A stretch of 58,767 bases of DNA, filler included, from Dugesia japonica (lineage: Eukaryota): NCBI GenBank assembly GCA_001938525.1. It is 5 parts of 5 records of this genome, joined end to end, with 100 filler letters (N's around TTAATTAATTAA, not from the genome) between each part and the next. Parts side by side here need not be neighbours in the genome. Positions count along the whole stretch, not along the records: positions 1 to 16,006 come from MQRL01639995.1; positions 16,107 to 29,382 come from MQRL01638256.1; positions 29,483 to 38,814 come from MQRL01645497.1; positions 38,915 to 49,038 come from MQRL01630116.1; 1 more part is not named here. One strand, 5' to 3'. Below, one piece after another: positions 678 through 49,192 of the stretch. The position numbers were made by a program, and so were the translations under genes. The notes beneath the pieces were generated by a model that was given only the letters and a program-made list of their open reading frames with translations, was not told the origin of the DNA and searched no databases. How positions within the stretch are numbered: position 1 is the first letter of the stretch; every line of letters begins with the position of its first letter.

Positions 678-852
678 TAATTGTAAAAACAAGTCAATTC
701 CTGACGAAGACAAGGTCGAAATATCGAAATGTTATTAAATATTAATAAAAAAACTAAAAAAATTTTGATCGAAGGTTTTTTTTTAAATGAATTTTGTAAA
801 ACGATCAATGGTTATGTCCAACAATTATTCTCGCAATAATTGCAATTGTAAA
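678..852 (+). ncRNA. Hammerhead-ribozyme repeat, family A (retrozyme/Penelope pLTR-like); best + strand copy, ribozyme at 695-731
   Basis: caattc-CTGACGA-A-GAC(aag)GTC-GAAA-TAT-C^gaaatg: both conserved cores, 3-bp stem II, palindromic ATAT stem III, stem I caattc/gaaatg. Followed by the family body ending caattattctcgcaataattgcaattgtaaa and preceded by a remnant of the previous unit end (aattgtaaaaac). Confidence 0.75.
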
Positions 853-1706
853 GTATAATGGTTTTTTGTTTAGTAAACTATAAATTCGGAGAATATTAAT
901 TTCTATCAAATGTCAAATAATTCTATCTTTGATAAATACGAAGTCTTATTAAATCCCAATCTTTATTATTGTTGAAATACCATTCAATTGTTTTGAACTT
1001 ATAATTGAAAATAGCAAAATAGAAAATTGTTATCTTAATTGTTATGATTTTGCTTAAGAATTAAAGTTTTTAAAAGTTAATTAAATGTGACAATTTTGGT
1101 TATTACATTTTTTGTATTACATATAAAATCCAATAATAATTTCAACAATATAATTTTATGAGAAAAGAAGAATTCATCAAATCTTCTCAATTTTTAGCGT
1201 ACTGAAAACATGTGTGCTCAATAAAAAAAAGTTATTTTTTTAAAATTCTCTTTACTGAACTGATAGTAAGTAATTTGGGATCATTTAGATTGAAAATATT
1301 AGATTGATCAGATAGCTCTGATTACAGGCACTTATATGAACGAAATAATTATAAACAGGTAACAAATAAATAAAATAAACAAACATATATAAAAGGGTGG
1401 AATTAATAATGTTTATGTTTGTTAACATGTTAAAACACTGAGTTTATAAAAAAAACGTTAGATTGTTTTGTTTTTTTTAATTATAAATTTGTTTAATAAT
1501 AAAATCTAAAATTTTAGAATTTGCAACTTTAAATAATTTCATTATTAGATAACGAAGAAAATTATTTTGTATATACATACAATAACGAAGCATAAGTGAT
1601 TGTATAAAGATACTTAAATGTGAGTATGGTCATATATTGAAATTTTATATTTCGATATTATGAAATTTGTTTAAATTTATCATTTTCCACTTTTTTACAA
1701 TTCAAA

Positions 1707-2580
1707 ATGTCCGTTGATTCCTAAATAATTACATCATGTTTGCTATACGAGCTCGGGTCCAAGACCGCATAGTCATTTTGTAAGATATGCCTAGCCTTTG
1801 GAAATAATGTCCTAATAGAAAGAGCCTTACAAAATTGGTTTGCAAAATTTATGAAGGGCAATGAGTTATTTGAATAAGCAACACGTTACGAGAGACCATC
1901 AAAGATCAATAATGATGATTTAATAGAAATTATTGAAAAAATTCAAGTTTAACATGTGAAGAGTTAGCTCGAATACTTGATGTAAAGTGGAACATGTCGT
2001 ACTCATTTGCATACATTGAGAAAACGAGTACCACATTCNTTAACAAATTAAAACAAAATGCAAAGATCAATGCTATGTTCTTCCCTTCTGTCGACAAATA
2101 TCATAATTTTTGGATTGCTTATTTACTTAAGCACTAAAAAAGGACTCATCAGTGGTTAGTAGTAAAAGATGCCACCCATGATTCGTTCTTTGAAGATCAT
2201 GTTTGCGTATGGTCTAATCTAGGTAGTTTTATTTACCACGAATTTCTAGAAAAGTCAATCAGTAACTGCAGACTTGTATATAAAGCAACTAGAACATTCT
2301 GCGCAAAATCAACTGGGTCTTATCAATACAAAGAAAGTTGTGTTGTTCCATTATATTGAAAAGCCTCATATCGAAAAATAATCAAGAAAAAAATTGTGAA
2401 TTAAAATGNNNNNNNNNNNNNNNNNNNNNNNNNNNNNNNNNTATTTATCCTACTGACTTCCATCTTTTATCGACCCTAGACAATCATTTTAATTAAAAGG
2501 TCTTAAAAAGCTCAACAAGAAGTTGAATTAGATGTCTTCAGGTTTCTCGCTTATCTCGTGTAACAGAATGTGAAGGAGAT
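1707..2580 (+). pseudogene. Decayed mariner (DD34D) transposase
   Basis: Manual translation gives LLYELG..ICLAFGNNVLIERALQNWFAKFMKGN..ERPSKINNDDL (mariner HTH), VVLFHYIEKPH (HDNARPH-like) and LSPTDFHL (YSPDLAPSDYHL-like); many stops and frameshifts. Confidence 0.85.
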
Positions 2581-2949
2581 TGTTTTAATGAATAATCTTT
2601 TATTTAGTTTCATTTTTAGCATTCTTATTTGACTTTAGTATTTTGATTTATAAACCGAATGAACTTTCTTGATTATTTAATATTTTNNNNNNNNNNNNNN
2701 NNNNNNNNNNNNNNNNNNNNNNNNNNNNNNNNNNNNNNNNNNNNNNNNNNNNNNNNNNNNNNNNNNNNNNNNNNNNNNNNNNNNNNNNNNNNNNNNNNNN
2801 NNNNNNNNNNNNNNNNNNNNAAACAGATCCAAACGAATTAAAGTAATTTATCACTTGATATGTTAACATAATTAAATAAATAAAAATTTTACAATTTATT
2901 TATTTACTGAAAAAATCTAAAAGGTTTACATTTTTACATTTAATTTAAG

Positions 2950-3345
2950 TAATAAATATATAACGCCATGTAAAACGAGATTTTATTGTAATATATTTCG
3001 ATGGAATAATCGTCACCATCAAGCAAAATCAAAAATATGAGATTATTCAGGCTATATTATTTAAGGAATTATACTGAACACACGATTGCTATAATAAAAC
3101 CTTTAAAAGGTTTTTATGAAATTAAATAAAATTTTCAATATTGGTTTTAATTTCATAAAATCTAATTTATGAATTTTTATTATAGCCAGTATAATTATAT
3201 TATTTTCAATATATTTGCTTAACTCTTTGTTCGAATAATATTGACTGAATAATCTATTATTTTTGAATTTGTCTGATTATGACATTTGATCAGTCGAATT
3301 ATATTACAAGAAAGTTTTATTTTAAATGGCGTTATTTATTTTTTA
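2950..3345. repeat. Imperfect inverted repeat (about 190-bp arms) with a degenerate family-B hammerhead in each arm
   Basis: taacgccat..ttgtaatata..gattattcag on the left mirrors ctgaataatc..tatattacaa..atggcgtta on the right, centre near 3135. Minus arm 2986-3026 reads TTGATGG-TGACGA..CCATC-GAAA; plus arm about 3268-3309 reads CTGATTA-TGAC..GTC-GAAT. Confidence 0.7.
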
Positions 3346-4788
3346 TCAAATAATAAATATATAATAAAATTTTAAAAGTGAGGCAAATAGATAATTATAA
3401 AATGTATTCTGAAAACATGGTTTTCTTTTATTTATACTCTTACAGAATCTTGGTTGATCCGCCCAAATTATATTACAATATTTATTGTTTTTTTTACATA
3501 TACAATAAAATTATTTTTATTATTTAGATTTTGTGCAAAATTTTTTAATAAAAACATTTTCTATGTCTAAATTCGTTTTCCTTTTTCACTAATGATTTTC
3601 ACTCAAAACTATTAATCCAACTTTAGTAGGCTTATATGGCTGTTATTTCTGAAAAACAAAGAAAAAACGAAGCCGTCATTATGAAATCTTTTAACGACTC
3701 TAGTTATATTGAAATCGGTTGCTTTATTTCCAGCTGTTCGTCAAAGACACTACTCAGGCGGTAACTAAATCGATTGTAGAATTGACTCTAGAACTTATCA
3801 ATTGCTGCGAGTAGCTCCAGTCTACGCATGTTTGCACACACTCCAGCCACCGTTTGCGGTTGAATTGTGCTGTGGTGTGTTTTGTCAGTTCGATTAAAAT
3901 AAAAAATGAATAAAATGAGAAGACTGGAATTATAAGAGAAATAAGTTGTTGTAGTGTAGCTGTTTAACCAACTGAATCATAATCACACACTAAGTAACTG
4001 TAAAAAAGTTATATGTATAGTGGTGCGAGCAAAGACGATTTTCGATTTTCTATTCAATACCCCTATTGTAATATCAGCTGTGCTTCATGTTGCCTACTGA
4101 CTCAAGTTGTTTCTGCATGAAGAAACTCGCAATAGTCGGCTGTGTTGCATTATCAGTCCAAAAATCAACTAAAATATTATGTCTGCTTCTACCAATTGAA
4201 CTAATAGATTTTATTTCATAAATAATTATTGTTAATAGCGATATTACAATTAATATTCCACTCAAACCATTCAATTGAATGAAAATATGAGCTTTATATT
4301 TTCATTTATCATAACAATTTTTTATTAATATTTTCGAGCATATATATATATATATATATATATATAATTGTGTTCAAAATTCTGTCATAATTATAACAAA
4401 GGTAAATAAAATATTATTAGTCAGTAAAAATTTAAGATGTTTAAAATTCTATCAGATTATATTGTTATTATAATCTCAAAATTATTTTTCTACATGTTTT
4501 CGTGAGATTGAAAAAAGTTTCATTTCGTAAGAATAAATTCGATTGTTAAAAAATGTCGTTATGTAAATTATAATCAGGTAGCTTATTAAATGAAATTATT
4601 ACATCAACAGTAGAGTTAAGTTACGTAACAAAAATGTATTTCAGATATTAAAAATAATTATTCACTATACCAGTATAATTTTCAAAATGTGTTCTTAATA
4701 TTGATATTAGAAGTCGGTTTTTTATTTTAATCATTTTTGTTTAAATTAACATGCAGAAATATTTTAATTTACATTTATTTTTCTGTAG

Positions 4789-6547: not shown

Positions 6548-6625
6548 ATTGTTTTACAATTGCAATTATTGCAAGAATAATTGTTCGACGTAACCATTGA
6601 TCGTTTTGCAGATTCCATTAAAATG
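6548..6625 (-). repeat. 3' part of a family-A hammerhead repeat (no ribozyme core)
   Basis: Reverse complement aacgatcaatggttacgtcgaacaattattcttgcaataattgcaattgtaaaac matches 800-852. Confidence 0.8.
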
Positions 6626-8369: not shown

Positions 8370-9050
8370 GTTTAATCATTTCCGTATTTACCTTCACATA
8401 TTTGCACAAGTGTACGTATATGTATACATAATTCATTCAAAATTAGCGGATTTTAATTTTTTAACAATAAATATCAAAATCAAAGTGGAATATAAATAAT
8501 TGTTGCAAGCTTAATGATTATCTATTTGATGTATTAATTTCCTAATTATTAATAAAACAATTTTCATACAGTGTTTAATTCTTTTTATTACAATTGATGT
8601 TTAAGACTCTAAAAACATTGATCAGTCATTTCACGAAACTTTTCCCTCAAATCAAGGGAGGTTGATGCCTTATGGAATATTTTGTTTAAAATACCAGCAC
8701 AAAATTTTGTTGCTTACAAATTCCACTTTCAATAGTGCTTTTAAAGGTTTCTGAGTTTATATTAGAATTATATCTTTTAGAAATAAAGAAACACGAATTA
8801 TTCGATTTCAGGTGTTTTCTGTCAAAGTTAATAAAATTTATACACGAGGAATTCATTAAAATGAAGTTGCAGATTTTATTGTATTTCATAAAATATTTCC
8901 CAATAATTTTATAATTACAATTATTNNNNNNNNNNNNNNNNNNNNNNNNNNNNNNNNNNNNNNNNNNNNNNNNNNNNNNNNNNNNNNNNNNNNNNNNNNN
9001 NNNNNNNNNNNNNNNNNNNNNNNNNNNNNNNNNNNNNNNNNNNNNNNNCA

Positions 9051-9465
9051 AAGGTCATTCCTGAAGAAGGCAAATGTGAAAAAATTGAATTTCTTTAAAA
9101 ATACATTTTATTTTGATCGAAGCTTTTTCTTTATTTTAATAAAATTTCCCGATAAATTTCATTAAAATAAGAAAAAGCTTCGATCAAAATAAAATTTATT
9201 TGTAAAAGGTTCAAATTTTCGACAATANNNNNNNNNNNNNNNNNNNNNNNNNNNNNNNNNNNNNNNNNNNNNNNNNNCTTCTTGAGATATTCAATACAAT
9301 AGATCTTTGTTACTCAATTCTTTAAATTTTATCGAAATTTTATTGGTTTAACAAACCAATAAAATTTCGATAAAATTTAAAGAATTGAGTATTTCTTATT
9401 TTAATTAAATCTCAAATGCGATCAATGGTTAAGTCCAACAATTATTCTCACAATAATTGTAATTA
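9051..9465. repeat. Cluster of family-A hammerhead repeat pieces and palindromes
   Basis: Degenerate core CTGAAGAAGGC..GAAA at 9061; inverted repeat of the family body at about 9105-9195; perfect 39-bp-arm palindrome at 9311-9391; family 3' end at 9418-9465. Confidence 0.75.
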
Positions 9466-12705: not shown

Positions 12706-12746
<41 letters not shown>

Positions 12747-12831: not shown

Positions 12832-12868
<37 letters not shown>

Positions 12869-12870: not shown

Positions 12871-12944
12871 CTATTTAAAAACTCAAGAAATAATGATAAT
12901 TTTTTTTAATAAATAATTGACAACCATTTTTTTAAAATATTTCT

Positions 12945-12985
12945 TTGTGATCGATTTCGACGGAATAACCGTCATCATCAGACAA
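12945..12985 (-). ncRNA. Minimal type I hammerhead ribozyme, family B, intact core
   Basis: Minus strand TTGT-CTGATGA-T-GACGG(ttatt)CCGTC-GAAA-TCGA-TC^ACAA: perfect 5-bp stem II, palindromic ATCGAT stem III, 4-bp stem I, UC cleavage site. Confidence 0.8.
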
Positions 12986-13525
12986 TAATTATTATTATTT
13001 ATTATAATAATAATAATAATAAATAAAAAGAAGAATGTTAATAATTATAATTGTAAGGTATTTGATAGCTACGAATAATTAATAATATTGCTATAATATT
13101 GTTTTTGAATTTTTATATTTATATTTTGAAATTTTATAAAATAAAAAATTCATGAAATGGATTACAGAAATTAATAAAATTGATTGTAAGTTTTGATTGT
13201 AGATATTTGCTTAATATAAAAAGTGTTGAAGGAGAGACGTTTCATCATCTAATAATGATAAAGAATGATGAAATAATATTTATAAATAAAAATTTCAAAC
13301 AAATTATTTCATTAATTTTGTAAATAATATATTATATGTTATTTTATTACTTTTTTAAAATACCTTTAATTAAATAAGAAACTTCGGAGAATTTTAATTA
13401 CAACTGATAACTTATTAATGTTTAAAATTTAACTAATGAGAATCATCTCAAAACCAGTTAAGAATGAAATTTCTTTAATTCACGCTTTCAATAGTTATTT
13501 TACCAATTTTAAATACAACTAATAT

Positions 13526-13690
13526 TTAATAAAAGCTTCAATAAAAACAAATCAATTCCTGATGAAGACAAAATCGAAAATTCGAAATATCAAAAATCAA
13601 ATTTTGATCGAAGTTTATATTTTAATGAATTCAGTAAAACGATCAATGGTTATGTCCAACAATTATTCTCGCAATAATTGCAATTGTAAA
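13526..13690 (+). ncRNA. Family-A hammerhead repeat with short inverted 5' arm
   Basis: caattc-CTGATGA-A-GAC(aaa)ATC-GAAA-ATT-C^gaaat at 13553-13588, then the family body to caattgtaaa; inverted aataaaagcttcaataaaa upstream. Confidence 0.75.
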
Positions 13691-15626: not shown

Positions 15627-16004
15627 AATCTCAATGGATCTCAAAACTTTCCACAAAAACAAATGAAAATCGAATGTCAGAAAACAATAGAAAATTCTGA
15701 TTTGGCACCCATTAATAGTATCAATTCTATGAGTCAGAACACCACTAATATCAATAGTATTCTATGCTCAAATTTCTTGCCAAACAATTTAAATACTACA
15801 ATTTACAATGATAATAATAACAATTCCAGTAGCCCATCATTTTTAGACATGAAAAGTTCACTGTATTCAGGTTTTAATCATCCAAAAAGTCCTGTCAGTT
15901 ACTTGTGTCCAAAATCCAATATTTCAGATTCTGATAAAATTATTGTTTATTGGTTGGTAAAAGACTTGAGACCTTATTCAATATTAGACGAAATAGGAAT
16001 CAAG
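15627..16004 (+). CDS. Internal exon (phase 0/0) ending in a hAT-transposase/ZBED-like motif
   Basis: Acceptor ttttag|AAT at 15626/15627 and donor AAG|gt at 16004/16005; 126 open codons, S/N-rich, ending DKIIVYWLVKDLRPYSILDEIGIK (resembles the hAT D-L-x-P-F-S-I-V-E-D-x-G-F segment). Confidence 0.65.
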
Positions 16005-16006
16005 GT

Positions 16007-16106
16007 NNNNNNNNNNNNNNNNNNNNNNNNNNNNNNNNNNNNNNNNNNNNTTAATTAATTAANNNNNNNNNNNNNNNNNNNNNNNNNNNNNNNNNNNNNN
16101 NNNNNN
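16007..16106. other. Artificial assembly spacer (44 N + TTAATTAATTAA + 44 N)
   Basis: Exactly 100 bp, six-frame stop linker, identical at four places. Confidence 0.97.
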
Positions 16107-17102
16107 AGACATAAAATGGTTTACATGAATTTAGAATTAAATGAAAAATAAAATAAATGAAAATAATATATTAATATTAAATAAATAGTCATATAAAAAT
16201 AAATGTCGCTATCTAAGTTTTGTAATAAATTAATTTTTGTAATAAAATCACTTTCATTTATTATTACAATATTAAAGAAGAAATAATGTACAAAATTTCT
16301 TTATAAATCATAGTTTTATTGAAAAATGTATTTTAAAATTTATTTGAAAATATTTGAAAAGTTATTAAAAGGTTTCCTATTGATTTTTTATTTCTATTAG
16401 TTATTAAATATTAAAAATAAAAGAAAGAAATTATAATTTATGCATATATACAATTTCTATAAATCATTATATAATTAAATTGTAATTTTATTTAAAAAAG
16501 TTTTATATAAAATTTATATAAAACGAAAATAAAAATCAAGTTTTAAAATAATCATTTAATTTATATATATATATAAATAATTTCTGTAAATAAAATAAAG
16601 TTAGTGTATCTAGCTGTGAGTCCATTTGAATGATTGAGGATATTGCTTGTAAATAATAGATTGCCGTATAAATATAATGGGAGATGATGGGCCGAAGGCA
16701 CTTACTAAATTTCAGGGCTTTGCTCTGAGATTTCCGGGGGGGAGCCTCTACCCATCAAAAGCTTCAAAATCATTAACAAATTCAAAAAATAAAGTAAAAA
16801 TCCGAAAAATTTTAAAACTTAATAATATGTAGGAAATTTAAAAAACAATCAAAAAATTCTACCCTTATATTTTTCAAAATATAATATTCTACACTAGTAA
16901 AAAAAATTCTACCCCCCCAGGGGAGGGTTTGGTGTAGTGCACCACTATGTCCCTACTGCCCTGGACTAATTAAAATTTTGCGCCCTTACATAGTATTATT
17001 ATAAAAACTCGATTTTATTATTTAAAATATTCGTAAATTCAAAACTGCGCCATTTAATTACACAAAAGAGAGTTTTTCAGAATTTTTATAATAATGTTCT
17101 AA

Positions 17103-17310
17103 TTTTATTAAAATAAAGCTTCGGTCAAAATTTTTCATTTGTTTTTAATAATAATTCTAATTTTCAACTTTGTCTTTGTCGAAAATTAGAAATATTATCA
17201 AAAGCAAAACAATTTTGGATTGAAGCTTTTATTTTAATGAATACTGAAAAACGATGAATTTGTTACGTTCAACAGTTATTCTCGTAATAATTCTTGCAAT
17301 TGTAAAACAT
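17103..17310. repeat. Family-A repeat in inverted (head-to-head) configuration
   Basis: ttaaaataaagcttcggtcaaaattt..aataattctaattttc mirrors gaaaattagaaatattatc..aattttggattgaagcttttattttaa; ends gcaattgtaaaac. Confidence 0.75.
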
Positions 17311-18062: not shown

Positions 18063-21000
18063 GAAAATGAGTTCAATGTTTCCGGTCTGGGTAAAGTAAA
18101 AGTTCATTTTTTGATTAAATATGCAACTTTTCGAAATGTCCCATACGAGAATTGTGACGAAGGCTATATTTATCCTGATTATAAATGTGATGTTGCTATT
18201 TCACATAATATCATCATTCCGTTTGAAAATAAGTGAATATTGTTTTATTCTAGCTATAATTTAAATGAATTATTAATTAATGTAGGAAAGAAATTTTATC
18301 ATACTTTTTGATTTAGAAATGAAGAAGAGTTTCTAGCCTTTGCATCCGCTATTAATTCAAAGTTAGATTTAGATTCAATTAAATTTAATTTGAATAAATT
18401 TATTGATGATGGTAATGGTGATGGTGCTGGTGGCTATGATGGAGATAGTGATGGAGATAGTGACGATGATGGAGATAGTGATGAAGAGGCTGATTGTGAT
18501 GGTGATAGTGATGATGATAGTGATGGTGATAGTGATGATGATGGTGATGGTGATGGTGATGGTGATGGTNNNNNNNNNNNNNNNNNNNNNNNNNNNNNNN
18601 NNNNNNNNNNNNNNNNNNNTGATGGTGATGGTGATGGTGATGGTGATGGTGATGGTGATGGTGATGGTGATGTTGATAGTGGTTATGATGGTGATGGAGA
18701 TAAAGAGGTTGAGGGAGATAGTGATAGTGAAGTTGACGATGATGAAGATGGTGATGGTGATGTTTGACGATGGTGGAGATGTTTCCTTCTGAGGTCATGG
18801 TGGAATTTTAAGGTCAAGGTCAACTGGTCTAAACTTTTATTTATGTATTTTTTGTTTAAATTAAGTAAGATTAATGATTAATTAAGTAAGTTTCTTCACA
18901 GGGTATATTAACATTACTCGTGCTGTGTAATATTAGTCCTAACAAAACGAGCACCGGAAAAATAACTCAACAAACATTTCAAAACACGATTGAAAATTAC
19001 ATAATTTATGTTCAAAAAACCTTTGCCAACTAAATACATAGAGAAATTTAAAAACAGTTAATCTTATTACATAAGATTTTACCAATTAAAATAATCTAAT
19101 GACATAATTTGTGTGCAAATGTTAAAGAAATGAAGCATCTTTAGAAAAAATACATTGAGACATTCCTGAGCTACTTTTTTATTTCTTCCACTGATACAAG
19201 TTTCAATTCGAAATCTTCTGGGTCAAAGGTAGCATGATTACGTGCGCCACATATTTAACTTCGAGAACCACGTATGTTTCAAACAATGTAAAGCTTTATA
19301 CGTATACATATTTTTATTTCTAGTTGAATTGTAAATGAATTTTTTTAAAATTATTATTATTTAAATAAATAATTACAATTTATAATTAATAATATAATTA
19401 TATATTATCAACGAAGCATATTTTCACTATAAGTCATTTAGACAATGTATAAATAACTTTCTATTCTGAGTATAATGACACAAGATTCAAAGTCTTACGA
19501 TCATGATCGAATGAGAAATTTCTAAAACAATTTTCGAATGATCCATTTCACAAATACTTTATCTTGGAAACTAAATATACTTATATAACAAATCCTATAT
19601 AACATATATTTAGTTTTTTAATTCTGAGTTCAACGATACCAAATTTGAATGAGTACGAACAAAAATGACCGAATAAAATTACAATAAAAAATTCGAAATT
19701 TCAAAGTTCCCGAGCAAATATTCAACAAGTTAACTTCGAAATCGAAAAATTGTTTACATTTTCGTAATGACCAATCGAATATCTTAAATTTCTAGATAAC
19801 TCAAATCTTTAGATTACTTCATCAGCAAGGGGAGACTGATCCTGTGTGCTATATATATAATTTGTAATTTATGGCATTATATATAATTTGTTTTTAAAAT
19901 TGTAAATAAGTATTTTAAATTGAAAAATGTTTATAAAAAATAAATGAATATTAAATATTAATTTTAAAATATATTTTATTATAAGAATTTCGAATATTTT
20001 AAGCTAATATTTTTTAATTACATAATTTTTTGTATTTTTTGATAAATTAAAATTATAATGGAAATTTCAGCTCAAGTACGATGTTTTTACATTTTTTAAA
20101 AAAAGCAAATTATATTTGATTGTTGTTGTTTTAATGAATCCTTAATTGAATGGGCTTGTTTACTAAATTTTACGATGAGTGTAGCAACCACATCTAATAA
20201 TGATGATTGTTAGACGAATCTGTAACATTCATCTGGGCATTTAAAAAATGAACACTTTTCATTCCGAGATTTTTTCAAGACAAAACAAAAACAGAACATA
20301 TACATTTGTCTTTTCAAACAAATTAAAAATTTTTATAACTGAAACTTGAAACAAAAAATATTAGTTTATCAAAATATTTTTNNNNNNNNNNNNNNAAATT
20401 CCATATCAAAACGTTTTAAAGAAAATTAAATTTATATCAGAAATTTAATAATTTCAAACATATGCATTTTATGAGTAAACATATTATTTATGACTACGAA
20501 TTATAACTTTTAAATATTAACTGTAAATTACATATTTTTAAATTTTTCAACAAATTATAAATTAAAAAATTGCTTTTCTTGAAACATTTGATTAAATAAA
20601 ATAACTAAAATAATATATTTAATTAATTTATTTCATATATTTAATTAATTTTTTTNNNNNNNNNNNNNNNNNNNNNNNNNNNNNNNNNNNNNNNNNNNNN
20701 NTTTTTTTAAACATTTAAATACGTAAAATTTTATGTTCACTAATTTATTTTATGATTTAATAAAAAATATTTAATAAAATAATTTCAATAATTTCGTCTA
20801 AATATACAAAAAATTTTAAATTGCTTTTCAAAACTATTTTTACAATGATGATTTTGATTTCATTAAAATGAAGCTTCGATAAAATTTGTTTTTGTTTTTA
20901 ATAATAATTCTAAAAAGTTAATTTCTGACGAAGACATAGTCGAAAACTATAATTGTTATCATAAACAAAAATAAATTTGATTGAAGCTTTATTTTAATGA

Positions 21001-24000
21001 AATCTCTAAAATAATCAATGGTTACGTCTAACAATTATTCCCACAATAATTATATTGATATAGATATTTATGATGATGAGAATGAAAATGATATTTAAAT
21101 AATAATCATAACAGCAATTATCGTAATTCATAATTTGTTTTAGATTGAGATACGAAAAGAAACCTTTTTCATATAGCAAAGAAGATCAAAAGTAAAAGGA
21201 ACATTAAATTAATAGTAGAACTTGATGAACTTTAATTTCGTAGATTATATTTTGGGTCTGATGTGTCAGAATCGATGGTTTACACTAAAGACAATGTTAA
21301 TGAATTACATTATTTTGCTGTCAGTGGTTATATTACTGATCGCTATTCATTAGTAAACAATTAATAAGTTATAATTTTATTTGGATTATAGATAGTAGGG
21401 TTATGCACTCAGTTATTTGATATTGATGTCTATGGGACACAATATTTAATTAGTTATTGCGGTTATGACTTCTTTCCGAAACCAGGGATTATTCATGAAT
21501 ACACTGGTAGAAATGATGAAACTTATACAATTATTACATATAATGTAGCACCTGCATGCTACTATTATCATTATGATATATCCTGTTGGAGAAAATGCGA
21601 ATCGGTAGAAGGCAGATTTCACTGCGATTCCACTGGGACAGAAATTTGTGAAGGAAGTCAGTATTTGAATAATACTTAGCTTAACGATTTGCATTATTAT
21701 TTTTATTATTATAATTATTATTATTATTAGGTAGATCTTTTAAAAATAATTGATTTTGCAAATCACAACAATTGATTTCACACATATTTATTTTCAAATT
21801 AAAACTGTAATGTTTGTAGAAAAACAATTACAAATAGAAATTAATCATTAATAAAAGTTATTTATCTAAATTTATATTGATTGAAAATATTCCTTTAAAT
21901 CCCCGTTCTTAAGAAACTTAAGAAGGTTTTCCACATTTCTAATTGTTTTCCATTTTCACCTTATACCGAATACCGTCTTTTGTGAATTTTCTCAATTATT
22001 TCATAAAGAGCTTCAAATCAGTTTTGACTTTTATTTCTACCTTAATTAGGACAAATTCTCCTACTTTGAATTCTTTATTAGTAGTATCTTTTGAAATTTA
22101 TTCTTTAATCTTCTCTGAAACTTCCGACTTCTAACATTTTTTTCCACTAAATTTCTTTACAAATACGATCTCATCCAAGCTCTTTCAAGTCATTTTCTGC
22201 TTTTTTGCATTCAATGTAAATTCAATTTCCTGTAAAATGTCTGCCCAATCTGTTTTTTTCTCTCCTAAAGTGTCGCCTTAATTAAATCTCAAATTTTCCT
22301 GAACTGTCTCTCAATTTGTCCGTTTGCATTGTGATAAAAAAGACTCGAAAACCTAAGTCTAATGTTTAGCCTCTGTGCAAACTCTCTCATAATTCTGGAT
22401 TCTAAGTCTTATCCAAAATCTAGTCTTATCTTTCTTAAGCATCCAAATCTAAAATTTCTGATCAAAAAGTGATTTTTGTATTGTTTCCTCTTTTTGTCTA
22501 AGCAATGTTATAAGAACCAGATATTTACTGCATTAGTCTATTATTCCAAGTATACATATTTTTCGTCCACTTGTTCCCCGAATAGCTCACATATATCTTG
22601 CTTAAATTTATATCTTCAGAAATGTTCAATTGTTCTTCTTTGTGAATATGACTTCAAACAAAGTGGTAGCTTATAATCTCTTTGTCTTCTCATTAATTTC
22701 TGTCATCATTATTTTGGTCTTCTGACAAATTTAATAACTACGAACTATCTTCTATATTTGGCTTCACAAATTCTATGCAATATATTTCTTTCTCATATAT
22801 TCGTACACCTTTTCAACTCCTGCATGACATAATAGTTCATGTATTTCTTCTATTGTTTCATGTATTTTGTCATCCGGAATTTTCATTTTCTTGCTTAAAT
22901 TTGTTTACTCAGAAATGTTTAATTGTTATTCTTTTTCCTTTTCAATTATGTTGAGTATTCTCGTTTTAATCTTCCTTTTCTTGGCATCTTCATGTGACAT
23001 TTGACATTGTACACATACCTAGCATCTTGGTCTAGATAATATATCTGCATTAGCATGTTGAATTCCTTTTCTAGTGTCATGTCTTGTCTACTCGGATAAT
23101 TAATCCATATCTGGAATTGTGATTTGATTTGTGTCTTCGTTGTCATCATAAAAGTTAAGGCTTTATAATTTGTTCTAAGAGTAACTCATCTACTGTAAAA
23201 GTTCTAAAAGCAAATTTAAATTTTTTGTATTTTTAAACGAAATCTATTAAAATCAGATTTGTTAAATATTTTAAATCAAATCATTAAAATAACGTGTTAA
23301 ATAAATTTTAAAATTTGTTTTCAGAAAGCCAACTTGAAATTTATAATTTGAATGGAATATAAAATTTTTGCAATTATATTAAATTAATTTATATTAATTT
23401 ATATTAAATTTTATATTATAGTTTTTAAATTTTGATAATTTCTCTGGGATTTGTAAAATTATAAAACTTCCGATTTTCAGCTTAAATATTTTTTATATTA
23501 TTTATTAAAATTTAAAAGAATCTCAATTAATTAAATATTTTTAGAAATGTTGTTATTCTTTTTTGTCGTTTCAAATATATTTTTTTAAATTTGTTTGAAT
23601 AAAAGAAATTTACATTCATAGTTTTGTTTTGTGAATAGATTTTTTGGAAGCTTTTTTTGAATTCGAATCTAGCATTGTGGCAACCGTAAACATCGATGCA
23701 ATCACAAGAGGTTGTTGACACATGAAGAATTATTTATAACACATGAAGAAGGTACAGGAAACAGGAGACAAAACATCGAAAAAGTTACGAAAAGAACTGT
23801 ATCGTCAACTGTATAGAGGAGAAGATTGGAGAGGCCATGAAAAATCTGTATGATTATGGTATCATCCGGAAGTGTAATTCTCAATAGAATAATTTAATAT
23901 TAAATACACTAAAAATAAAATAAAATCAGGAGATTCATTTAATTTTGCCAAATTAATCATATTTGGGTGTCCTAAAAAAGAACATTAAACATTCACATAT

Positions 24001-28380: not shown

Positions 28381-28545
28381 TTGTTTTACAATTGCAATTA
28401 TTGCAAGAATAATTGTTGGACGCAAATCATTTTTCAGAATTCATTTTAAAATAAAAGCTTCCATCAAAATTTGTCTTTTTGGTTTTTGATAACAATTCTG
28501 TATTTTGACTTTGTCTTCGATAGGAATTGACTTTTTGAATTTTAT
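28381..28545 (-). repeat. Family-A hammerhead repeat, core mutated
   Basis: Reverse complement aaaagtcaattc-ctatcga-agac(aaa)gtc-aaaataca-gaattgttatc..caattattcttgcaataattgcaattgtaaaacaa, showing perfect stem I caattc/gaattg. Confidence 0.8.
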
Positions 28546-29482: not shown

Positions 29483-32400
29483 TTTCGTATTTACAGTGAC
29501 GGAAGTGAAAAAGCTCACGGAAGGATCAAAGATCGACATCCAAGCAAAGTGAATTTTTCTGCAGAAAAAGCTAAGGGGTGAGATCATCGATTTACAACAC
29601 AAGAATACTCAACTCCGAGGAAAAGTGGGCATACTAAAAGAGCGAGAACTAGCACTGGCTCAGACATGTCGAGCGATNGCCGACATAATAAAATCCTACG
29701 CCGACAAAGAAACCATGCTGATCGCAACGGTGCATACATTGACACGGGTATCAAAATCAATATCAGATGTTTCTAAGGAGAAAGCTAGCGAGGTGGTCGA
29801 GCTGGACGCGTGATCTATAATAATAATGAACAGTGTTGTATCAAATATCCTTTGCTTTATTGGAACAGTAAAATAAATGTATATTGCTTAGTAAATTCTA
29901 AATGTCGAAAGAATGAGAGCCGGATTGAAAGAAATTGAACCTAAGACGGGATACAGCATAGTCCCGCTGAATCCGGGAAAAGGGGGATCGTGTTGCTGGA
30001 GAGAGTAAAACAAATTTCTGTGGTTGTTAAGTGTCATCCCCTAGACGGAAAAGATAATCAGAGAGAAAGTGATAATGCATGAGAGAAAAATGAAGATCAA
30101 CACAAGTATTAATTAAACAACATCCAAAAGCCTAACAACCCAGCAGATTGGGTAAATAAAATCCAGAAGGTCATCAAAGTAAAAAGTAAAAGTAAACAAC
30201 TGATTTCAACCAGAACAGCGGAACTCATCGGAGCTCTACATAATTTTTCAGCAATGATTAGTCAGGAGTACCAAATGTTATTAGAACAGTTTGTATAAAT
30301 CCAAGGTCAAAGGTTATTAGGTTTAAATCAGAATCATTTAAAATAAAAGTTTTATGGCTTTGCAATAAGAAAAAACTTATCATATCTGGAGATTATCGCT
30401 GGTGTGTTTTAGCGGAATTGATTAGAAATAACAACCAAGAATCAAGAGAACCGTTAGACGGAAAAACGGAAAAATTATATTTCGGTTCTACTCTTATTGA
30501 CAGCAAGTCCACGGACCCAATACAATTAGGGGGACTCTGGAAAATGCTAGAATCAATATAATCGTCCAAATAATGAGACGGACGAAATAACCGACATCTA
30601 AACCGATTAAAGATAAGCATAAGGAAGAAAGGCCTCCGAGCATTAACATTATTTAACAAATAGATAGTATCAAAATGGCAGGAGCCAAAATCGGCAAATA
30701 ATAAGAGAATAAAGTATGGATTGAATATGGAAGAAGTATTTTCGCACATATCCAAAAACCTACTACGAACAGTAACTAAGCAAATACAAGAACTAAGCAA
30801 AATAATTCACAAAGTAAACACAATGCATGAAGAATCAGACGAGAAAACCGTATTAGTAACAAGAATACTAACACTCATAGAACGGGAAAGCTACCAGTAT
30901 GCAAAAGTGCAAGAAATGTGAAAAGAAGGGACATATAAAAAGGAGTTGTTCGGCACTCTTGTGGCGAAAAAGGACACATATGGAAAATATTTAGCAATAA
31001 ACGAAAAAAGGTCTAAGAAAGAAACAACACAAATTCGTCACAGTAAGGAAGGAGAACGGGAAAATGCAGTAACAGACTCCATTAAACTCTGCATGCTACA
31101 GGTGAAAACCGCAGAAACAATAGAACCAGACGACTTCATAGAATTAGTGATAAAGAAGAAAAAGGGAAGAATAGAAGTTGGAGAAATGAAAACTAGAAGC
31201 CAGAAATCGGAAGCAGGGACTCTAAATACACGGGAAGTCGAAATAAATCAAACATATAGCCCAAAACAAGTAAACTATATAACAAGGACGGACTCAAATC
31301 AAGAGTCGGAACTATTGTCAAACAACGATCTTACAGATCGGATGGAAGAACTATTATGGGTATTAACATTACAACTAAAGAAGTTGGAAGAGGAAACTAA
31401 TGCAGTACAAAAAAACTGATAGAAACAATAGTAGAAAATATATTAAAATCAAGGCTATCAAAATTCAAAGAACAGGGGAAAAGAACAAAATTTGCATTAC
31501 AAATGTTGTTAAAAAGTTTAAGTGTAACAGAAAAGTTAATAATAAAAACGACAACACCTAAACAAAGAGAAAATTATGAGTGTAGTGAATGTGGTAAACT
31601 TGGGCATTTTGCAACGTGGTGTTGGAAGAATAGACTTTGTGAATATTTTGGGAATCAGATCACCCAAAGAAACTATGTTGGAAAAAATCATTTAAGTTAT
31701 GTGTTGGTTTAGAACATACAGAAAACCAATATAAAAGAGAATCGGATATCGAACTTATCTTTAAAAAAAGGATGCACGAGATGTGGAAAAAATGACCACA
31801 CGCTAGCCACGTGTGAATTAAAATGCAAAAGATGTAGCCGCAAATGACACACCGAAATAGTAAGCCAACCAGACAAACAATTCACTAAGTGTAGAGGAAG
31901 AGGACATCTAGCAGAACAATGTGACATCCATAGATGTTTCAATTGCGGGAGAACCGGACACACCATTAAAAGGTGCTGATTTAAAGTCAGTAGTGAAGAC
32001 TTAGCCGTAATCATAGAGAGATCGAACAAATTATGTATGCTACAAATAACAAATGAAGAAGAAAAAATGAAATCGTCTGATAGCTTCAAAGAAAATCAAC
32101 TAATGACACGTGTAGAACGAGATAATCCCCAGACAGTACCAGAAGACTGGCAGAAAATATTTAATGCATACAATGAGCGGATATCCAGGTTAGAAGAAGC
32201 ATTACATTTGACCCAGGTACAATGTCAAAATTTCAAATATTTGGAAGATAAAGCGATAGAGGATAAGAGAAATGCACTAGTACTGCAAAATATAGTAATG
32301 ACCAATTTGCAAAAAAGAGTAATCTTCAGTCGAATTAATTGGAAAGAGTATTGATCATTAAGAAAACAACAAACAAGAACCGAAGCAGCAAAAATAGGAA

Positions 32401-37630: not shown

Positions 37631-38358
37631 TAAATTAAAATAAATTATTGTATTTAATTTCAGACTGTTAATAGAATCCAGACTAATTATGAAAAATCAT
37701 AGATACCATTTGATTTGAAATAAATCTTGTAATTTAAATTGTGTATGATTTTAGAAATATTTTAATGTAATTTGAATTATCTCAATGTTTTAAAATTTTA
37801 TAATTCTAATTTTATTAGTAAAATAGCTTTATAATTACAAATAGAATTAATTTTATATAATTTCAAAATTTTAACTAATTAATTATTATTTTTTATGATT
37901 TATAAGTCAACAGATCTATATTCAAAACACCAAAAATATATTTATCCGTAGTTATATATAAAATACTTACATTTACTCATATATACCACAACCACAGTAT
38001 ATTTTACCACAGACACAATATAGTTTAGATAACACAGCACACACACAGTACATAGGAATACCACAGCTACTAGCCGAACATGTTTTGAGAAAAGTAAAAT
38101 TATATTTCAAGACTTTTTAATGGTAGAATGGTATAAAATATTTTAAAAATTATTATTTATTATAATTATAATTAAATATATAATTTAATTTCCTAAACGA
38201 AGCATTTTTGTACAGCAAACCCTATACAAAAGAGGTTCAGCATTTTATTCTATGTTCAACGATACCAAGTATGTTTGATTATCATAAGCATTTCCAGAGT
38301 AAATCCTTTATTTTATCCAGTAATTTTCTATCTTTTATACAGCAAACACTATACAAAA

Positions 38359-38814
38359 TGTTAGGTAAATCTCCAATTGTTAATTCATTTTGCAAATCAG
38401 AATTCAAATTGTTTGATATTTTTTATTTAACTACTACAAACTTTACTTAATAAGAGAAATGATTATTGAATAGTATTTTAAAAATCTTTATCCATAATTA
38501 ACCCAATTTCTATTGGCTCAAAATTATTAAATAATAATTATTTCCTTATATCCCCCTTCTTAAGAAACTTTATAAGTTTTTCCACATTTCTTTCTAAACA
38601 CTGTCCATTTTCTCCTTGTACTGCATACCGCCTTTCATGAATTTTCTCAATTATTTGATAGGGTCCTTGTTCTTGTTTCTACCTTGATGAGTACCATATC
38701 GCCCACTTTGAATTCTCTTTTAGTAATCACGTCTAAAGTCTTTTCTTCAGTTCTTTCTGACACATCTGACTCGTACCACTTTTCTCTGCTAATTTTCTTT
38801 CCAAAAATGATTTT
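38359..38814 (-). mobile_element. Gypsy 3' end: integrase tail, PPT and about 190-bp 3' LTR (38359-38550)
   Basis: Minus strand PPT AAGAAGGGGGA then TATAAGGAAATAATTATTA...CCTAACA, homologous to the solo LTR at 42852-43041; coding tail homologous to 21900-22170. Confidence 0.8.
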
Positions 38815-38914: not shown

Positions 38915-38981
<67 letters not shown>

Positions 38982-38986
38982 TTTAG

Positions 38987-39388
38987 ATGAAAAAACAAAA
39001 AATGTTAAACCAAATAAAAAATCTTGAGAGTAATTTAACAGAAATTGATTCTCAAATATTTTCAATGAAACAGGAAATTTATGCAAAATCTGATGAAAAG
39101 AATAAAACTCATCAAAGACTTTTGTCAGAGGAAAAGGCATATAATGATGCCAAAAATGATCTTGAATCATACTCACAAAAACTTCATACTTACAAAACAG
39201 AGCTCAACAGTTTACGGCAAAGTTTGTCGGCAATGGAAAGTTTTAAGATTTTAAAAACGAGTCCGGAATTCATAGAAAATATCGTCGTTTCACAAAAACT
39301 TCCTGCACAATCAGTTCAATTGGCACCCTCATTAAAGAATGCTATTGATCGAAAAATAGGATTAATGTCAAATAAAAATTCTATATAA
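38987..39388 (+). CDS. Probable terminal exon of a host coiled-coil protein gene
   Basis: atttag acceptor immediately before 38987; 133 open codons with heptad-like L/I spacing; AATAAA about 100 bp after the stop. Confidence 0.6.
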   Translation: MKKQKMLNQIKNLESNLTEIDSQIFSMKQEIYAKSDEKNKTHQRLLSEEKAYNDAKNDLESYSQKLHTYKTELNSLRQSLSAMESFKILKTSPEFIENIVVSQKLPAQSVQLAPSLKNAIDRKIGLMSNKNSI

Positions 39389-39781
39389 TATTTTGTCTTT
39401 TATAAATTGATCTCATTGAATGAGCTACGATGCGGTGAATTAAATAATTTTAATCTGTTTTTTTTTGTTAATATTTGTTAGTAAGTATAAATAAATGTGA
39501 ACAACCGATTAATTACAAACTAAAAATAAAACCATCATAATGTTTAGAGTTAAACGTCGAATTTCGCAAATTATTTGCATCCATTAAAATAACGTAAGAT
39601 GAATTATGATTATAATTAATACATTCGTATAAAAAACCGAATTGAAAAAATTAAACTTTCTATTTTTTATTATTTTTTGAAAATGAAAATAATCAAATAT
39701 TTTGAAAAAAAAATTTTCGTTATTTAAAATTTATTTTCAATTTCAAAGATCAAAAACGATGTTCTTCTATTTTCATAGATG

Positions 39782-39814
39782 GTTCAATATTTCGGCTATG
39801 CCTTCTTCAGGAAC
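39782..39814 (-). ncRNA. Hammerhead ribozyme, family-A variant with compensatory changes
   Basis: Minus strand gttc-CTGAAGA-A-GGC(ata)GCC-GAAA-TAT-T^gaac: stem II GGC/GCC and stem I gttc/gaac covary with GAC/GTC and attc/gaat of the other copies. Confidence 0.75.
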
Positions 39815-40897
39815 TATTGATCAATAAATTTTAAATAACGAAATCTATTTTTCAAAATATTTGTTTATTATACAGATCAATGATAAAGTTAATTTTTAGA
39901 AAATAAATTTTAAAATTAAAATTTCTGCAAATAAATTTAATTTAAATAATGTTTTTCCGAACAAAATCATAAAAAACCTTTAGTATATTTGTGCAATATT
40001 TTAAATGAATTAATATTTTTAAAGATAAAATATGTTATTCTCTGAAAATTTTTGAATGTTTTATTAATATTTAATAAAATTTAATTTTAATATTTAATAA
40101 TGTTTTAATAATTAATTTTAAAAATATTCTTTTCTGCAATTCGTTAATTTCAACAATTATTTATCAAATAATTTATTTTCCAAATATGAAAATACAAATT
40201 GTTTTCTTCTATTTTACTAGATTGTACAATATTTCGAGATAATTTTCAGCAGTTAATTTCTATGCTTTTACATTTTTTTTGATAATAATTCTGATTTATT
40301 ACTAATTGTCTTATTTAATATCTTTTATTAGCATGTCGGTTAATGACTTTTGGGATTCTCACTATTTATTACTGATTTGCTTTTGTAATGTTTACTAGCA
40401 TAATGGAAAATTTAAAGAATAAAATAAAATAATCAATAGAAAATAATTAATGAAAGTGTAGACTTAATTCTAAATAAAACCTTGATAAATTGAGGTGAAA
40501 ATAATTGATTATTAATTGGTGAAAATAATAGGTGAAGTTTTAAGAGTATCTATAATTTAATTTAATTATTATTCATTATTTTATTCCTTATTAATTTAAA
40601 TGTTCTCTCTAATTTATTAATTGAATTTATTAATTTTTTAAAATTTATTTGTTTAACTTATTTAATTAATTTTACTGATTTATTTGATTCGTTTATTAAA
40701 TTGATTTAATAAACTTATTTAATTAATTTTATTTATTTAATTAATAAATTAAATTATTTAAATTTATTACTTTCATTTATTTTACTCAATTAATTTATAA
40801 TTGTGAGCAGTTCTGGGAGCCCACATAAAGTCTTAAAAAATTAAATAGTTGCCCAAACTCTAGTCTTCTAGAGAATGACTGTGGCTTCCGCCTGTGC

Positions 40898-41880
40898 CAG
40901 TGTTTCCAAATTACCCGAATTACAACTACTCGGGTATTCGAGTAGTGAATTTTCAAACTATCCGGGTAATCCGGGTTAACCGGGTAATTTTAAAAATACA
41001 TATAAATTCGTAAAAACTATTTAAAAAATCTGTAAATAAAAAAAAATTAAAATACAAATTTATAAATAAATTAATATAGTTATTATTTATTTAAAAAATA
41101 GTATTTAAAAAAAACTAGTGCATTTAATATTTTAGGACTCATTCAATTTCTAAATTTATTGCAAAATATCCCAGCAATGGAAAATACACGCTTCGATGCG
41201 GTAGATGTTGGTTTCACCGTCAGTAAAGCTTGCTATAATTTTTCTAATCTGCCTGTTCTATACCCATTATTTGCTTCTAATAGCTTTAATTCTTTCTCAA
41301 CTGTAAGAGTAACACTATTCTCAGGAATTGGATTTGTGAACATAGCAACACATTTTTGTAATACTAAATGTTCACTACCTGAACTTGAATGTCCGTCGGA
41401 TTGTAAGATTAGGCCATCTAATTCATTGGTATTGTTCTGAACAGCTGTTAATTAAAGATGCGATTAATGAAGTTGCCAATTCCTTAATTACAGCTTTCGA
41501 TACGCAGAAAAAATTCGTTGGATTTGGGGCACACTCTATTGTGCAGTAGCATTAACAATGACGTCAAATACTTATTTCTGCGTTGATCAATACGTATTTT
41601 TAACGAATTTTAAAATTCTTTTGCTAAAGATGTATTCACTTTTTTCAATTGTTGAAATATGTAGGTCAACGTAGATCATAAATTCGAACTTTGCTTGCTT
41701 AGTTCGAGCACAGCCAGTTTCACTGGCTCTTAAATCATAAAAACTTCGGTTCGCAGCTTTACGTATCCTTCATTAAATTTTTCTACACCGAGTTCATCTA
41801 AGGCGATGTTAGTCGATTTAATTATTTTTAAAAGTCTTTCAATAGAAATAACGAGCTGCTCCATTGAGTTTTAATATCCA
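40898..41880 (-). mobile_element. hAT transposon 3' part (dimerisation domain) and terminus
   Basis: Minus translation LTVKPTSTASKRVFSIAG (hATC PxTSxxSERxFSxAG); terminus CAGTGTTTCC with subterminal TACCCG/CGGGTA repeats. Confidence 0.8.
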
Positions 41881-42249
41881 ACAACAATTCGTAACGGTTT
41901 ATCTTCTTTTATTAATTATCAAGATCTTAAAATTATCAATATCATAATTATCATTTTGAATTTTATCATTAGTTGAATTGTTTATGAACTCTTTAAGGTT
42001 TACTAATATTTAAAATTATTTTATTTTATTGTTGGGATGCCAGGAGTGTTATTGGTTTTAACTTTTTACTTGATAAATTCTCAATATTAGACTTCTCTTT
42101 CAATTGTCCTCAAATCTCCTGGCTATCTGCAGCATTTAAATTGAGCTTTTGTGGTCTCAACTTTCTAGAATGTTGATGACCTTCATTCGTACTGGCGATA
42201 TTTGCAGACCTATTTTGGTTTGAGTTAATTCGTACTCCTTGATTCTTGC

Positions 42250-43486
42250 TCGTAAGTCATGATGTGTACAACGATTGAAATGCATGAATTCGAAATATAA
42301 GTAATTCTTATTTCACGAAGGAGTAAGACAGCTATCAAGAGAACGAAGTTTGAATAGATTAAAAAATGAAATCATTATATTTTAAATTGAGCAACAAATC
42401 CAATCTTATCGTTCTCATTGCTTTTAAGGCTATAGTGTCTCTGTGACATTTTTGAAAAATTAAACGAGTTCAACCTCTCTTTTCAAGGAAAGTAAACCGA
42501 TATATTTATTTCTAATGATAAAATTAAAAAATTTATCAAAAAAATCAATTTTTGGAAGAATAACGTGAAAAATAATTCCTTCGAAATGTTTCAATCTGTA
42601 AATGATTTTATAATTGAAAAAGTAATAGCTAGAATTTAATTCATTTAAAATAAAAGCTTAGATCAAAATTTGTTTTTATTTGATAATTGCAACAATTGCA
42701 ATTGTAAAACAAGAATTCGAAAGAACTTCACCTCAACATTTAGTCTGAAAGAGATTTACTGGATTCAAAATCCATTTTCAACGAGAATTGATGATATTAA
42801 CTATTAAGTATTTTAAAAAAGCGTAAAATTTTTAATGTTTTAAAATATTTCTGTAAGGAAATAATTATTAACTAATAATTTTAGCCAATAGAAAGTGACT
42901 AAATTCAATATTAGGATTCAATCAATTCTATTCAATTATGATTATCTTATCAAGCATGTGTTGTAGTAGTAAAATAATTGATGTCTAAAAATATTAGTTG
43001 TGATTTGGGAAATGAATTACCAATTGAAGATTTACCTAACAATTTCAATTGTAAAATTTTTATTAAACCCAATGTTTATTTGCATAAGTTTATAAATGGA
43101 AATTTTTAGTAAAAATGGCATTACATGTTCTCTTGCCATATTTATGCGAAATAGCAGATTCAGCTTTAACTGCTATTAAAACCAAATATTATTTAACACT
43201 GAAGAACGTGAAATATGATTTACGTCCAGTGGTTTCAAATATTACACCAAGATTTAAGTGGATATGCAGCAAAATCCGTGCGCATTCATTAAATTGATTT
43301 ATTTTTATATTTTAAATTCATTCTTAAGCTACATTTATTTTAAAAGATAATAGGATTTACATATTCATGTAGAATAACTTAGTAATGTGGCTATTTCTAT
43401 GTTTTCTGTCAAATTTAATAGCTGGGGTCGTGAAAAAAATTATGATGATAATGGGGTCATTAATGCGAAAACATTAAGAAGCACTG
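42250..43486 (+). mobile_element. Decayed Buster/Charlie-type hAT transposase with nested insertions and 3' terminus
   Basis: LFHEGVRQLSRERSLNRL (HTEVRWLSRG-like), WIQNPF and YLCEIADSALTAIKTKY..DLR..SNITPRF..AH; ends aagaagcactg at 43486. Interrupted by a family-A piece (about 42640-42710) and a solo LTR. Confidence 0.85.
42852..43041 (+). mobile_element. 190-bp solo LTR (Gypsy)
   Basis: TGTAAGG...CCTAACA termini; 5-bp TSD ATTTC at 42847-42851 and 43042-43046; homologous to the PPT-adjacent LTR at 38359-38550. Confidence 0.9.

Positions 43487-49138: not shown

Positions 49139-49192
<54 letters not shown>

Follow-up and report, generated by a model that had tools for sequence, protein, structure and literature searches.

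Two kinds of described element are among those closest to the subject of this report, a family of short repeats with a small hammerhead motif in a 58,767-nt stretch of Dugesia japonica DNA (assembly GCA_001938525.1; five joined pieces, called the window below). The first kind is the Penelope-like element (PLE). According to the portion of PMC4209133 available here, PLE hammerheads leave one base unpaired between positions 9 and 10.1, pair G10.1 with C11.1, and are palindromic at 15.2-16.2; most of them occur singly, and pairs on opposite strands, 100-700 bp apart, are read as truncated PLEs. The same source gives a helix II of 7-8 bp for schistosome-family PLE hammerheads. Dimer cleavage of minimal hammerheads is described in part of a review (PMC6765202). 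PLE insertions feature an inverted 5'-truncated copy, a one-sided tail of 30-40 bp, and palindromic junctions (PMC8557442; PMC3846280), and solo pseudo-long terminal repeats (pLTRs) are mentioned in PMC3846280. In vitro studies of one lizard PLE revealed that both strands are nicked and extended where the DNA is AT-rich, with uncut RNA as the main substrate and with two adjacent internal starts of reverse transcription that bound the tail (PMC11167929). The second kind is the animal retrozyme, which features canonical hammerheads in tandem arrays and is expressed as monomers and circles (PMC7229834; bioRxiv 10.64898/2026.07.22.740005). These papers, and those cited below, are drawn on for the portions available.

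The main family of the window is a non-coding, multi-copy, dispersed repeat of about 165 nt with fixed ends. Apart from the fixed ends, this much was also claimed, together with a PLE-type minimal hammerhead, by the first-pass annotation of the window, and the family profile, the hammerhead descriptor, and the unit ends seen in public runs bear it out. With a probability of roughly 0.75, the family is a solo pLTR or a non-autonomous derivative of a PLE that was probably inserted by a Penelope reverse transcriptase (RT)-endonuclease acting on uncut RNA. The window has a G+C content of 24.6% and many N runs, with 56,805 N-free bases. Self-comparison linked the pieces of the family at 72-90% identity. 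A profile built from four copies found 13 matches at E<=0.0014, namely the four inputs and nine further matches (E 1e-23 to 1.4e-3), and the reversed window, used as the control, gave a best E of 1.1. There are two weak extra matches, at 42687-42711 (E 0.04) and at 48255-48328 (E 0.032); the latter, on the minus strand, reads as an old, weak 3' fragment of the family. The family occupies 1266 of the N-free bases (2.2%). The profile and the alignment place in one family eight of the nine pieces that had first been listed as related, and the ninth, 39782-39814, shares the hammerhead only and has 54-nt inverted arms of its own. Six window copies share one 3' end point, and two pieces are 3' parts only, being 5'-truncated. 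Literature searches returned no description of this family, which repeat libraries such as Repbase and Dfam may hold, and the available part of PMC6431247 has nothing on it.

Four public runs were aligned to window positions 560-980 at 80% likeness, X1 and X7 as contigs and X21 and X22 as RNA reads. The copy-1 region attracted 23,882 contigs from X1, 5,014 from X7, 71 reads from X21, and 2,158 reads from X22, and nearly all of these sequences fall within ~680-855. The summed depth is 1.1-1.4 million over the hammerhead, 2.5-3.9 million over the 3' part, and 9-35 over the unique flank. Summed depth is not copy number, multiple counting being up to ~31-fold; allowing for this, we infer a family copy number of the order of 10,000 to 100,000. 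Loose ends accumulate before 691 and behind 852, the latter in all four runs, as sharp unit ends beside unrelated flanks. The pile-ups before 691 and behind 852 comprise 193 and 821 contigs in X1, and 142 and 629 reads in X22. Among the 24 of 581 loose-end rows listed, the agreement between loose ends is 0.45-0.49 in X1, X7, and X22, about that of unrelated AT-rich flanks, and 0.54-0.65 for the few X21 reads. The true 5' end of copy 1 lies within the A-run 684-690.

The hammerhead of copy 1 consists of stem I (695-700 with 726-731), CUGACGA at 701-707, an unpaired A708, stem II (709-711 with 715-717), GAAA at 718-721, and a palindromic AUAU. A strict minimal descriptor found three sites in the window (701+, 39810-, and 12981-), whereas 300 shuffles gave 0.06 on average. 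At each of these sites the CUGANGA, GAAA, and UH core is closed by stems I and II, and all three feature the unpaired base between positions 9 and 10.1 as well as the G10.1-C11.1 pair. Column pair 19/27 is G-C in five of the seven aligned rows and G-U in the other two. Helix III is replaced by a palindromic stub, which is AUAU at 701 and 39810, a six-base palindrome at 12981, and AAUU at 13559, and which is not present at 20925. Helix II has 3 bp in the main family and in a second family, and 5 bp in a third; a length of 4 bp or more is a typical trait and not a strict requirement. At position 729, where copy 1 has A, over 99% of the summed depth from the other copies (469,570 of 472,397) reads T, so that their stem I has six perfect pairs. 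Among the 40 of 92 variants listed, those in the hammerhead lie mostly at N7 (705), in loop II (712, 714), and at H17 (725), and position 731 varies in 1.4% of the X1 depth. Across five window copies, identity in the core is 47/50 compared with 130/164 at other columns. Within the window the motif is fully intact in just one of the eight main-family pieces, and decay has affected most genomic copies.

The motif is less widespread among the pieces than was first claimed. The CUGANGA...GAAA consensus holds in five of the nine pieces (701, 9061, 13559, 20925, and 39810), only two of which (701+ and 39810-) pass the strict descriptor. There is no hammerhead at 6548-6625 or 42640-42710, the core is broken at 28381-28545 and 17103-17310, and in the 20925 hammerhead the first stem I pair is broken. 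The proposed covariation of stems I and II is supplied nearly entirely by 39810, a sequence outside the family that shares only the hammerhead and is the source of the A-U to G-C swaps, and covariation over the seven rows is weak, with changes on both sides in three of nine pairs (reached by 14 of 500 shuffles) and a score reached by 33 of 500. A covariance model built from the seven rows found the seven inputs and five chance-level matches (E 0.55-0.77), nothing new. An Rfam search of the window at E<=1 gave no hammerhead and one chance miRNA match, and searches for hammerhead patterns in metagenome and viral contigs gave 0 and 0 matches.

The layout of the copies (Table 1) includes inverted 5' segments that the first-pass annotation overlooked. 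Five long inverted arms have a common outer end near copy-1 791-794 and differing inner ends, and leave a one-sided 3' tail of ~60 nt unpaired. An inverted 5'-truncated copy stands at the 5' end of the unit at 17101-17176, 20856-20912, and 42633-42686, with a short one at 13529-13542; none was detected for copies 1 and 7, and the inverted pieces upstream of the copies numbered 1, 2, and 7 are not significant against background windows. No background window scores as high as the inverted arm of the 17101-17308 unit (0/2964) or the 20856-20912 arm (0/3006), the inner end of which is near the predicted cut site. The piece at 13529-13542 is an exact 14-nt inverted match to an internal segment of the family; its inverted match to the copy's own downstream part is not significant against background windows. 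The pair at 9049-9227 belongs to a divergent subfamily, features a degenerate hammerhead at 9061, and is bounded by N gaps; the single piece first drawn at 9051-9465 is a composite that spans the 50-N gap 9228-9277. In the predicted fold, the tail 794-852 contains an 8-bp hairpin whose end lies ~10 nt ahead of the 3' end. The window's two other hammerhead families are also arranged head-to-head.

In sum, the family has fixed ends (a 3' end shared by six window copies and marked by loose ends in four runs) and unrelated flanks, some copies are 5'-truncated, the inverted arms lack the tail and vary in length, and the hammerhead motif is of the PLE type. This layout fits PLE pLTR remnants better than a retrozyme, and what the first-pass annotation had only as background becomes the preferred assignment. 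If a PLE is responsible, the RNA would start near position 685-690, and a PLE protein supplied in trans would nick AT-rich DNA. Reverse transcription would begin at one of two internal sites ~60 nt apart (~793 and 852). Distal priming at 852 would give a forward copy with the tail, running out at the RNA 5' end or halting early, and priming of the other strand at the proximal site (~793) would give an inverted tail-less arm. The template would be uncut RNA, because full-length copies keep both hammerhead halves, and the ribozyme may cut slowly and only as a dimer through its four-base palindrome. The family is probably copied by PLE enzymes rather than from tandem-derived RNA circles. A self-propagating non-coding family is slightly favored over by-products of the upstream pLTR of an autonomous element, because AAG stands in place of AUG at the anole start position, frames are broken by changes in length from copy to copy, and no protein homologue is found.

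Several observations weigh against the PLE assignment. No RT or GIY-YIG domain was found by Pfam, which is weak on short decayed PLE pieces, in 292 of the 304 window frames of at least 45 aa (eight omitted frames lie over the hexamer repeat near 18.4-18.8 kb and four are the most AT-codon-rich); the first-pass annotation had likewise recognized no such open reading frame (ORF), and the best Pfam match among the frames is a zinc knuckle. No shared sequence was seen beside the unit in the public runs, so they show no link to an autonomous PLE. The family is accordingly not classed as an autonomous PLE, with no RT and GIY-YIG ORF among the window frames scanned and no shared flank in the runs. 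A 43-codon open frame through the 13562-13690 copy was considered as a PLE N-terminus and rejected, as it has no homologue. Target-site duplications, which are optional in PLEs, were found above background at 0 of 10 boundary pairs, the copies being ~15-25% diverged and the boundaries approximate. At ~60 nt the tail exceeds the 30-40 nt given in the literature, and the 3-bp stem II falls short of the 4-8 bp of the examples in the available part of PMC4209133. The copy-1 hammerhead fold has an energy of -1.4 compared with -6.9 kcal/mol for the lowest-energy fold, the AUAU duplex alone is unstable (+1.6), and G12 (718) varies in 3.6% of the X1 depth among the variants listed. In favor of the assignment, the 3' part is ~3 times deeper than the hammerhead in the public runs, but this excess may partly stem from the likeness filter.

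Among the alternatives, the non-LTR retrozyme favored by the first-pass annotation fares best and is unlikely. It supposes a few unseen tandem arrays giving multimeric RNA whose self-cleavage yields ~165-nt monomers and circles, with the dispersed copies as offspring. The unit size is within the 150-450 bp range in the available part of PMC7229834, and a monomer share of up to 1 in some families and a derivation from pLTRs are described in part of bioRxiv 10.64898/2026.07.22.740005. Short-read contigs collapse arrays; however, Tandem Repeats Finder detected no array of the main-family unit in the window, two or more consecutive hammerhead units were found neither there nor in the public runs, and the retrozymes of PMC7229834 are canonical hammerheads in tandem. 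The motif here is minimal, with no helix III loop, a 3-bp helix II, and no Rfam match. At least two X1 contigs and at least two X22 reads return from the 3' end to the 5' part, but among the 15 of 27 joints listed the joints are at single-copy depth and their spacers differ (20, 21, and 12 letters): the 852-to-691 joins listed are in two of the 23,882 X1 contigs, where the spacers have 20 and 21 nt, and the joint in two X22 reads leads from 848 back to 710. A weak end-like match does precede copy 1 (p ~0.02). This is the head-to-tail junction once proposed at 678-700, an AT-rich match of 14/16. Among background windows, 56 of 2978 do equally well, and the depth from other copies drops there from 154,685 (680-694) to 193 (665-679). 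Behind 852 there is no consensus (agreement 0.47-0.54 in the four runs, among the loose-end rows listed).

The position of the motif and the RNA also argue against a retrozyme. The hammerhead lies ~10-15 nt inside the 5' end and does not mark monomer ends, so the copies are not cut-to-cut monomers, and the copy ends are neither at the cut site nor permuted. RNA reads are found on both strands (1013 and 1145 mates in X22), and 97-99% of the aligned RNA reads run on into unlike sequence. The search for a ~165-nt circle gave no circle joint and no pile-up of starts or ends in X21 (71 reads, 6% of the run) or X22 (2158 reads, oligo-dT, 25% of the run), both raw runs coming from libraries that are poor for small circles and lose them. 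A run search listed no RNA holder, which counts for neither side. These run-on reads on both strands, having no pile-up, fit passive transcription inside host RNAs. A tandem-cut, circularized monomer is therefore not supported by the dispersed single copies, the fixed ends, the internal hammerhead, and the RNA.

It is very unlikely that the family is instead a non-autonomous Helentron, a rolling-circle DNA element like HINE or DINE-1, in which the inverted segment is a subterminal repeat and the hammerhead is captured or a mere resemblance. In HINEs, counted from the 3' end, subterminal inverted repeats (subTIRs) lie at 38-60 bp and a palindrome at 8-35 bp (PMC4067079, as far as available). 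The partner of the inverted segment at ~60 nt and the hairpin at ~10 nt, with its 8-bp stem, come close to these distances. No target duplication was found, and a very high copy number is typical of such elements. However, subTIRs are fixed at 12-15 bp, whereas the arms here range from 14 to ~75 nt, have shifting inner junctions, and are undetected before copies 1 and 7. Fixed subTIRs and T-runs at both ends are absent, with none of the six intact 3' ends followed by T. Additionally, one pair is tail-to-tail, and the inverted layout is common to three separate hammerhead families.

An ordinary short repeat whose hammerhead match is coincidental or long dead, with no role in its history, is hardly credible: Rfam gives no hammerhead, covariation is weak, seven of the eight family pieces lack a fully intact motif, and loose core patterns arise by chance ~2 times per shuffled window, but the strict descriptor finds 3 sites against 0.06 expected, the letter that predominates at 729 among other copies makes stem I complete, and traits outside the core match the PLE consensus published in PMC4209133, as far as that consensus is available. 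A miniature inverted-repeat transposable element is rejected, as neither end of the unit repeats the other in inverted orientation.

In its best reading the family is something ordinary and a known kind of repeat, namely one further case of a genome filled with Penelope end-pieces that bear hammerheads. Copies in the thousands, sharing a fixed 5' end and two fixed 3' ends, would be a natural record of the PLE mechanism. The copies could be used to test genome-wide the two internal priming sites seen in vitro for one lizard element, and they would predict a transcription start. They also bear on what PLE hammerheads are for, because full-length copies retain an uncut motif. A bolder proposal, which we regard as distinctly unlikely, is that the family is a self-propagating passenger of the Penelope machinery resembling a short interspersed element (SINE), never in arrays, with a hammerhead that has shrunk to a 3-bp stem II, and making up ~2% of this DNA. 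In that case the palindrome could allow intact copies carried by separate host RNAs to pair and to cut these RNAs in trans as a genome-wide RNA-cleavage signal, because copies would be read passively inside many host transcripts and would need a partner to fold. If true, a PLE-dependent self-propagating SINE whose 3-bp-stem ribozyme is active within host transcripts would be of greater specialist concern.

Table 1. Hammerhead-bearing and related repeat features of the window.
Feature	Position	Strand	Basis and remarks
Copy 1, full-length	686..852	+	Family's only fully intact hammerhead in the window; atypical A-rich linker insertion
Minimal type I hammerhead of copy 1	695..731	+	Descriptor; cut predicted after C725
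3' tail of ~60 nt	794..852	+	Absent from inverted arms; five arms stop near copy-1 791-794 (alignment)
Two decayed third-family hammerhead relatives	2950..3345	opposite strands	112-nt inverted arms, 172 nt apart
5'-truncated copy, 3' 72 nt only, without hammerhead	6553..6624	-	Profile E 4.7e-20
Tail-to-tail pair of tail-less copies	9049..9227	9049-9146 +, 9154-9227 -	Profile; 66-nt arms, 79% complementary
3' part of copy	9392..9465	+	Beyond 50-N gap 9228-9277; self-comparison and profile
Third family: complete minimal hammerhead	12943..12987	-	5-bp stem II, six-base palindromic stem III
Full-length copy (from ~13545) behind short inverted piece 13529-13542	13522..13690	+	Profile; one stem II mismatch
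Head-to-head unit	17101..17308	+	Tail-less inverted arm 17101-17176, followed from a junction within stem II by a 5'-truncated, tail-bearing forward copy
Head-to-head unit	20856..21051	+	57-nt inverted arm 20856-20912 and forward copy, hammerhead core at 20925
Full-length copy, mutated catalytic core	28385..28537	-	Profile
Second family: inverted arms enclosing an intact minimal hammerhead (core from 39810)	39688..39869	-	54-nt arms 39688-39741 / 39816-39869
Internally deleted unit	42633..42710	+	Inverted arm 42633-42686 joined to last 25 nt of tail; profile and alignment

The second family, a foldback unit, has the layout of the main family and a different sequence. A weaker direct relative is located 442 nt away at 40170-40236. 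The third family includes the best-looking putative ribozyme of the window, judged from sequence, a complete hammerhead (~12945-12987, minus strand) that the first-pass annotation overlooked; an AUG at the start of its stem II opens a 31-codon frame, and TAA-rich tracts lie on either side. The arms of its decayed relatives, 2950-3061 and 3234-3345, have 79% identity, and their hammerheads face outwards, which matches the opposite-strand pairs described in part of PMC4209133. Two further structures adjoin main-family pieces. Directly before the 3' piece at 9392, and beside the N gap, the segment 9311-9391 forms a perfect 39-bp hairpin with a 3-nt loop, which may have arisen by a recent foldback or be an artefact of the assembly. 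The 3' end of the 28385-28537 copy is directly abutted by the segment 28238-28390, in which a 28-nt unit with a CCAAT-box-like core occurs four times at intervals.

The window as a whole resembles decayed mobile-element DNA from a eukaryote, in all probability an animal to judge by a zinc-knuckle gag frame and a double-jelly-roll capsid lead. The region 51397-58053 is a fragmented, Polinton/Maverick-like one, in which the frame 54661-55344 has double-jelly-roll capsid look-alikes (score 0.82, a lead only) and the frame 51397-51816 is one that we take, by eye, to be protease-like. The same region features a 348-nt inverted duplication (51811-52158 and 55519-55865, 92%) and a gag-like remnant at 53441-53896 with the zinc knuckle (Pfam E 1.7e-6), to which pieces near 23.7 kb (23584-23797) are related. 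Another gag-like remnant at 30664-31709 has a weak gag match at 30664-30918 (E 0.009). Related decayed pieces at 21885-22169, 38355-38811, and 42854-43045 (72-77%) look by eye like the pol ends of LTR retrotransposons and have no Pfam match. Near-duplicate segments (84-91%) flank 50-N gaps at 49157-50757 and may be haplotypes side by side or a local tandem repeat. A GC-richer hexamer repeat at 18404-18781 yields an open frame, Asp/Gly-rich or His-rich, that spans an N gap. Three plus-strand segments for which searches returned no match resemble, by eye, a Cys-rich DSL-type exon (21392-21676), a hAT-type transposase piece (15627-16007), and a Tc1-type transposase piece (26307-26531).

Compared with the minimal hammerheads that the pLTRs of PLEs contain (Cervera and de la Pena 2014, PMC4209133, as far as available), the main family shares the type I core, the unpaired base after position 9, the G10.1-C11.1 pair, the palindromic helix III stub, the mostly single dispersed motifs, the opposite-strand pairs, and the presence of several families per genome. 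It differs in a helix II of 3 bp with a 3-nt loop and in having no linked ORF, and the planarian example of that study is another sequence. Similarly, the accessible descriptions of PLE insertions (Arkhipova 2013, PMC3846280; Craig 2021, PMC8557442; Frangieh 2024, PMC11167929) agree with the family in the 5' truncation, the head-to-head tail-less inverted copy, the hammerhead ~100-130 nt upstream of the 3' end, and the AT-rich surroundings; the family differs in its tail of ~60 and not 30-40 nt, its sharp 5' end just before stem I, and the lack of a detected target duplication or coding part. In the third family, the AUG at the start of stem II at 12943-12987 is in the position described for the anole PLE (PMC11167929). 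Non-autonomous Helentrons of the HINE/DINE-1 kind, in the part of Thomas 2014 (PMC4067079) drawn on, are alike in the asymmetric inverted segment, the 3' hairpin, the absence of target duplication, and the high copy number, whereas the arms here are long and variable, the ends are not T-flanked, and a hammerhead is present. The animal non-LTR retrozymes, as described in portions of Cervera and de la Pena 2020 (PMC7229834) and Li et al. 2026 (bioRxiv 10.64898/2026.07.22.740005), occur in tandem with canonical hammerheads, whereas the family is not in tandem, its hammerhead is minimal, and monomer or circle RNA was not seen in the runs examined. Both are short and non-coding, and feature a type I hammerhead and a probable origin from, and dependence on, PLEs.

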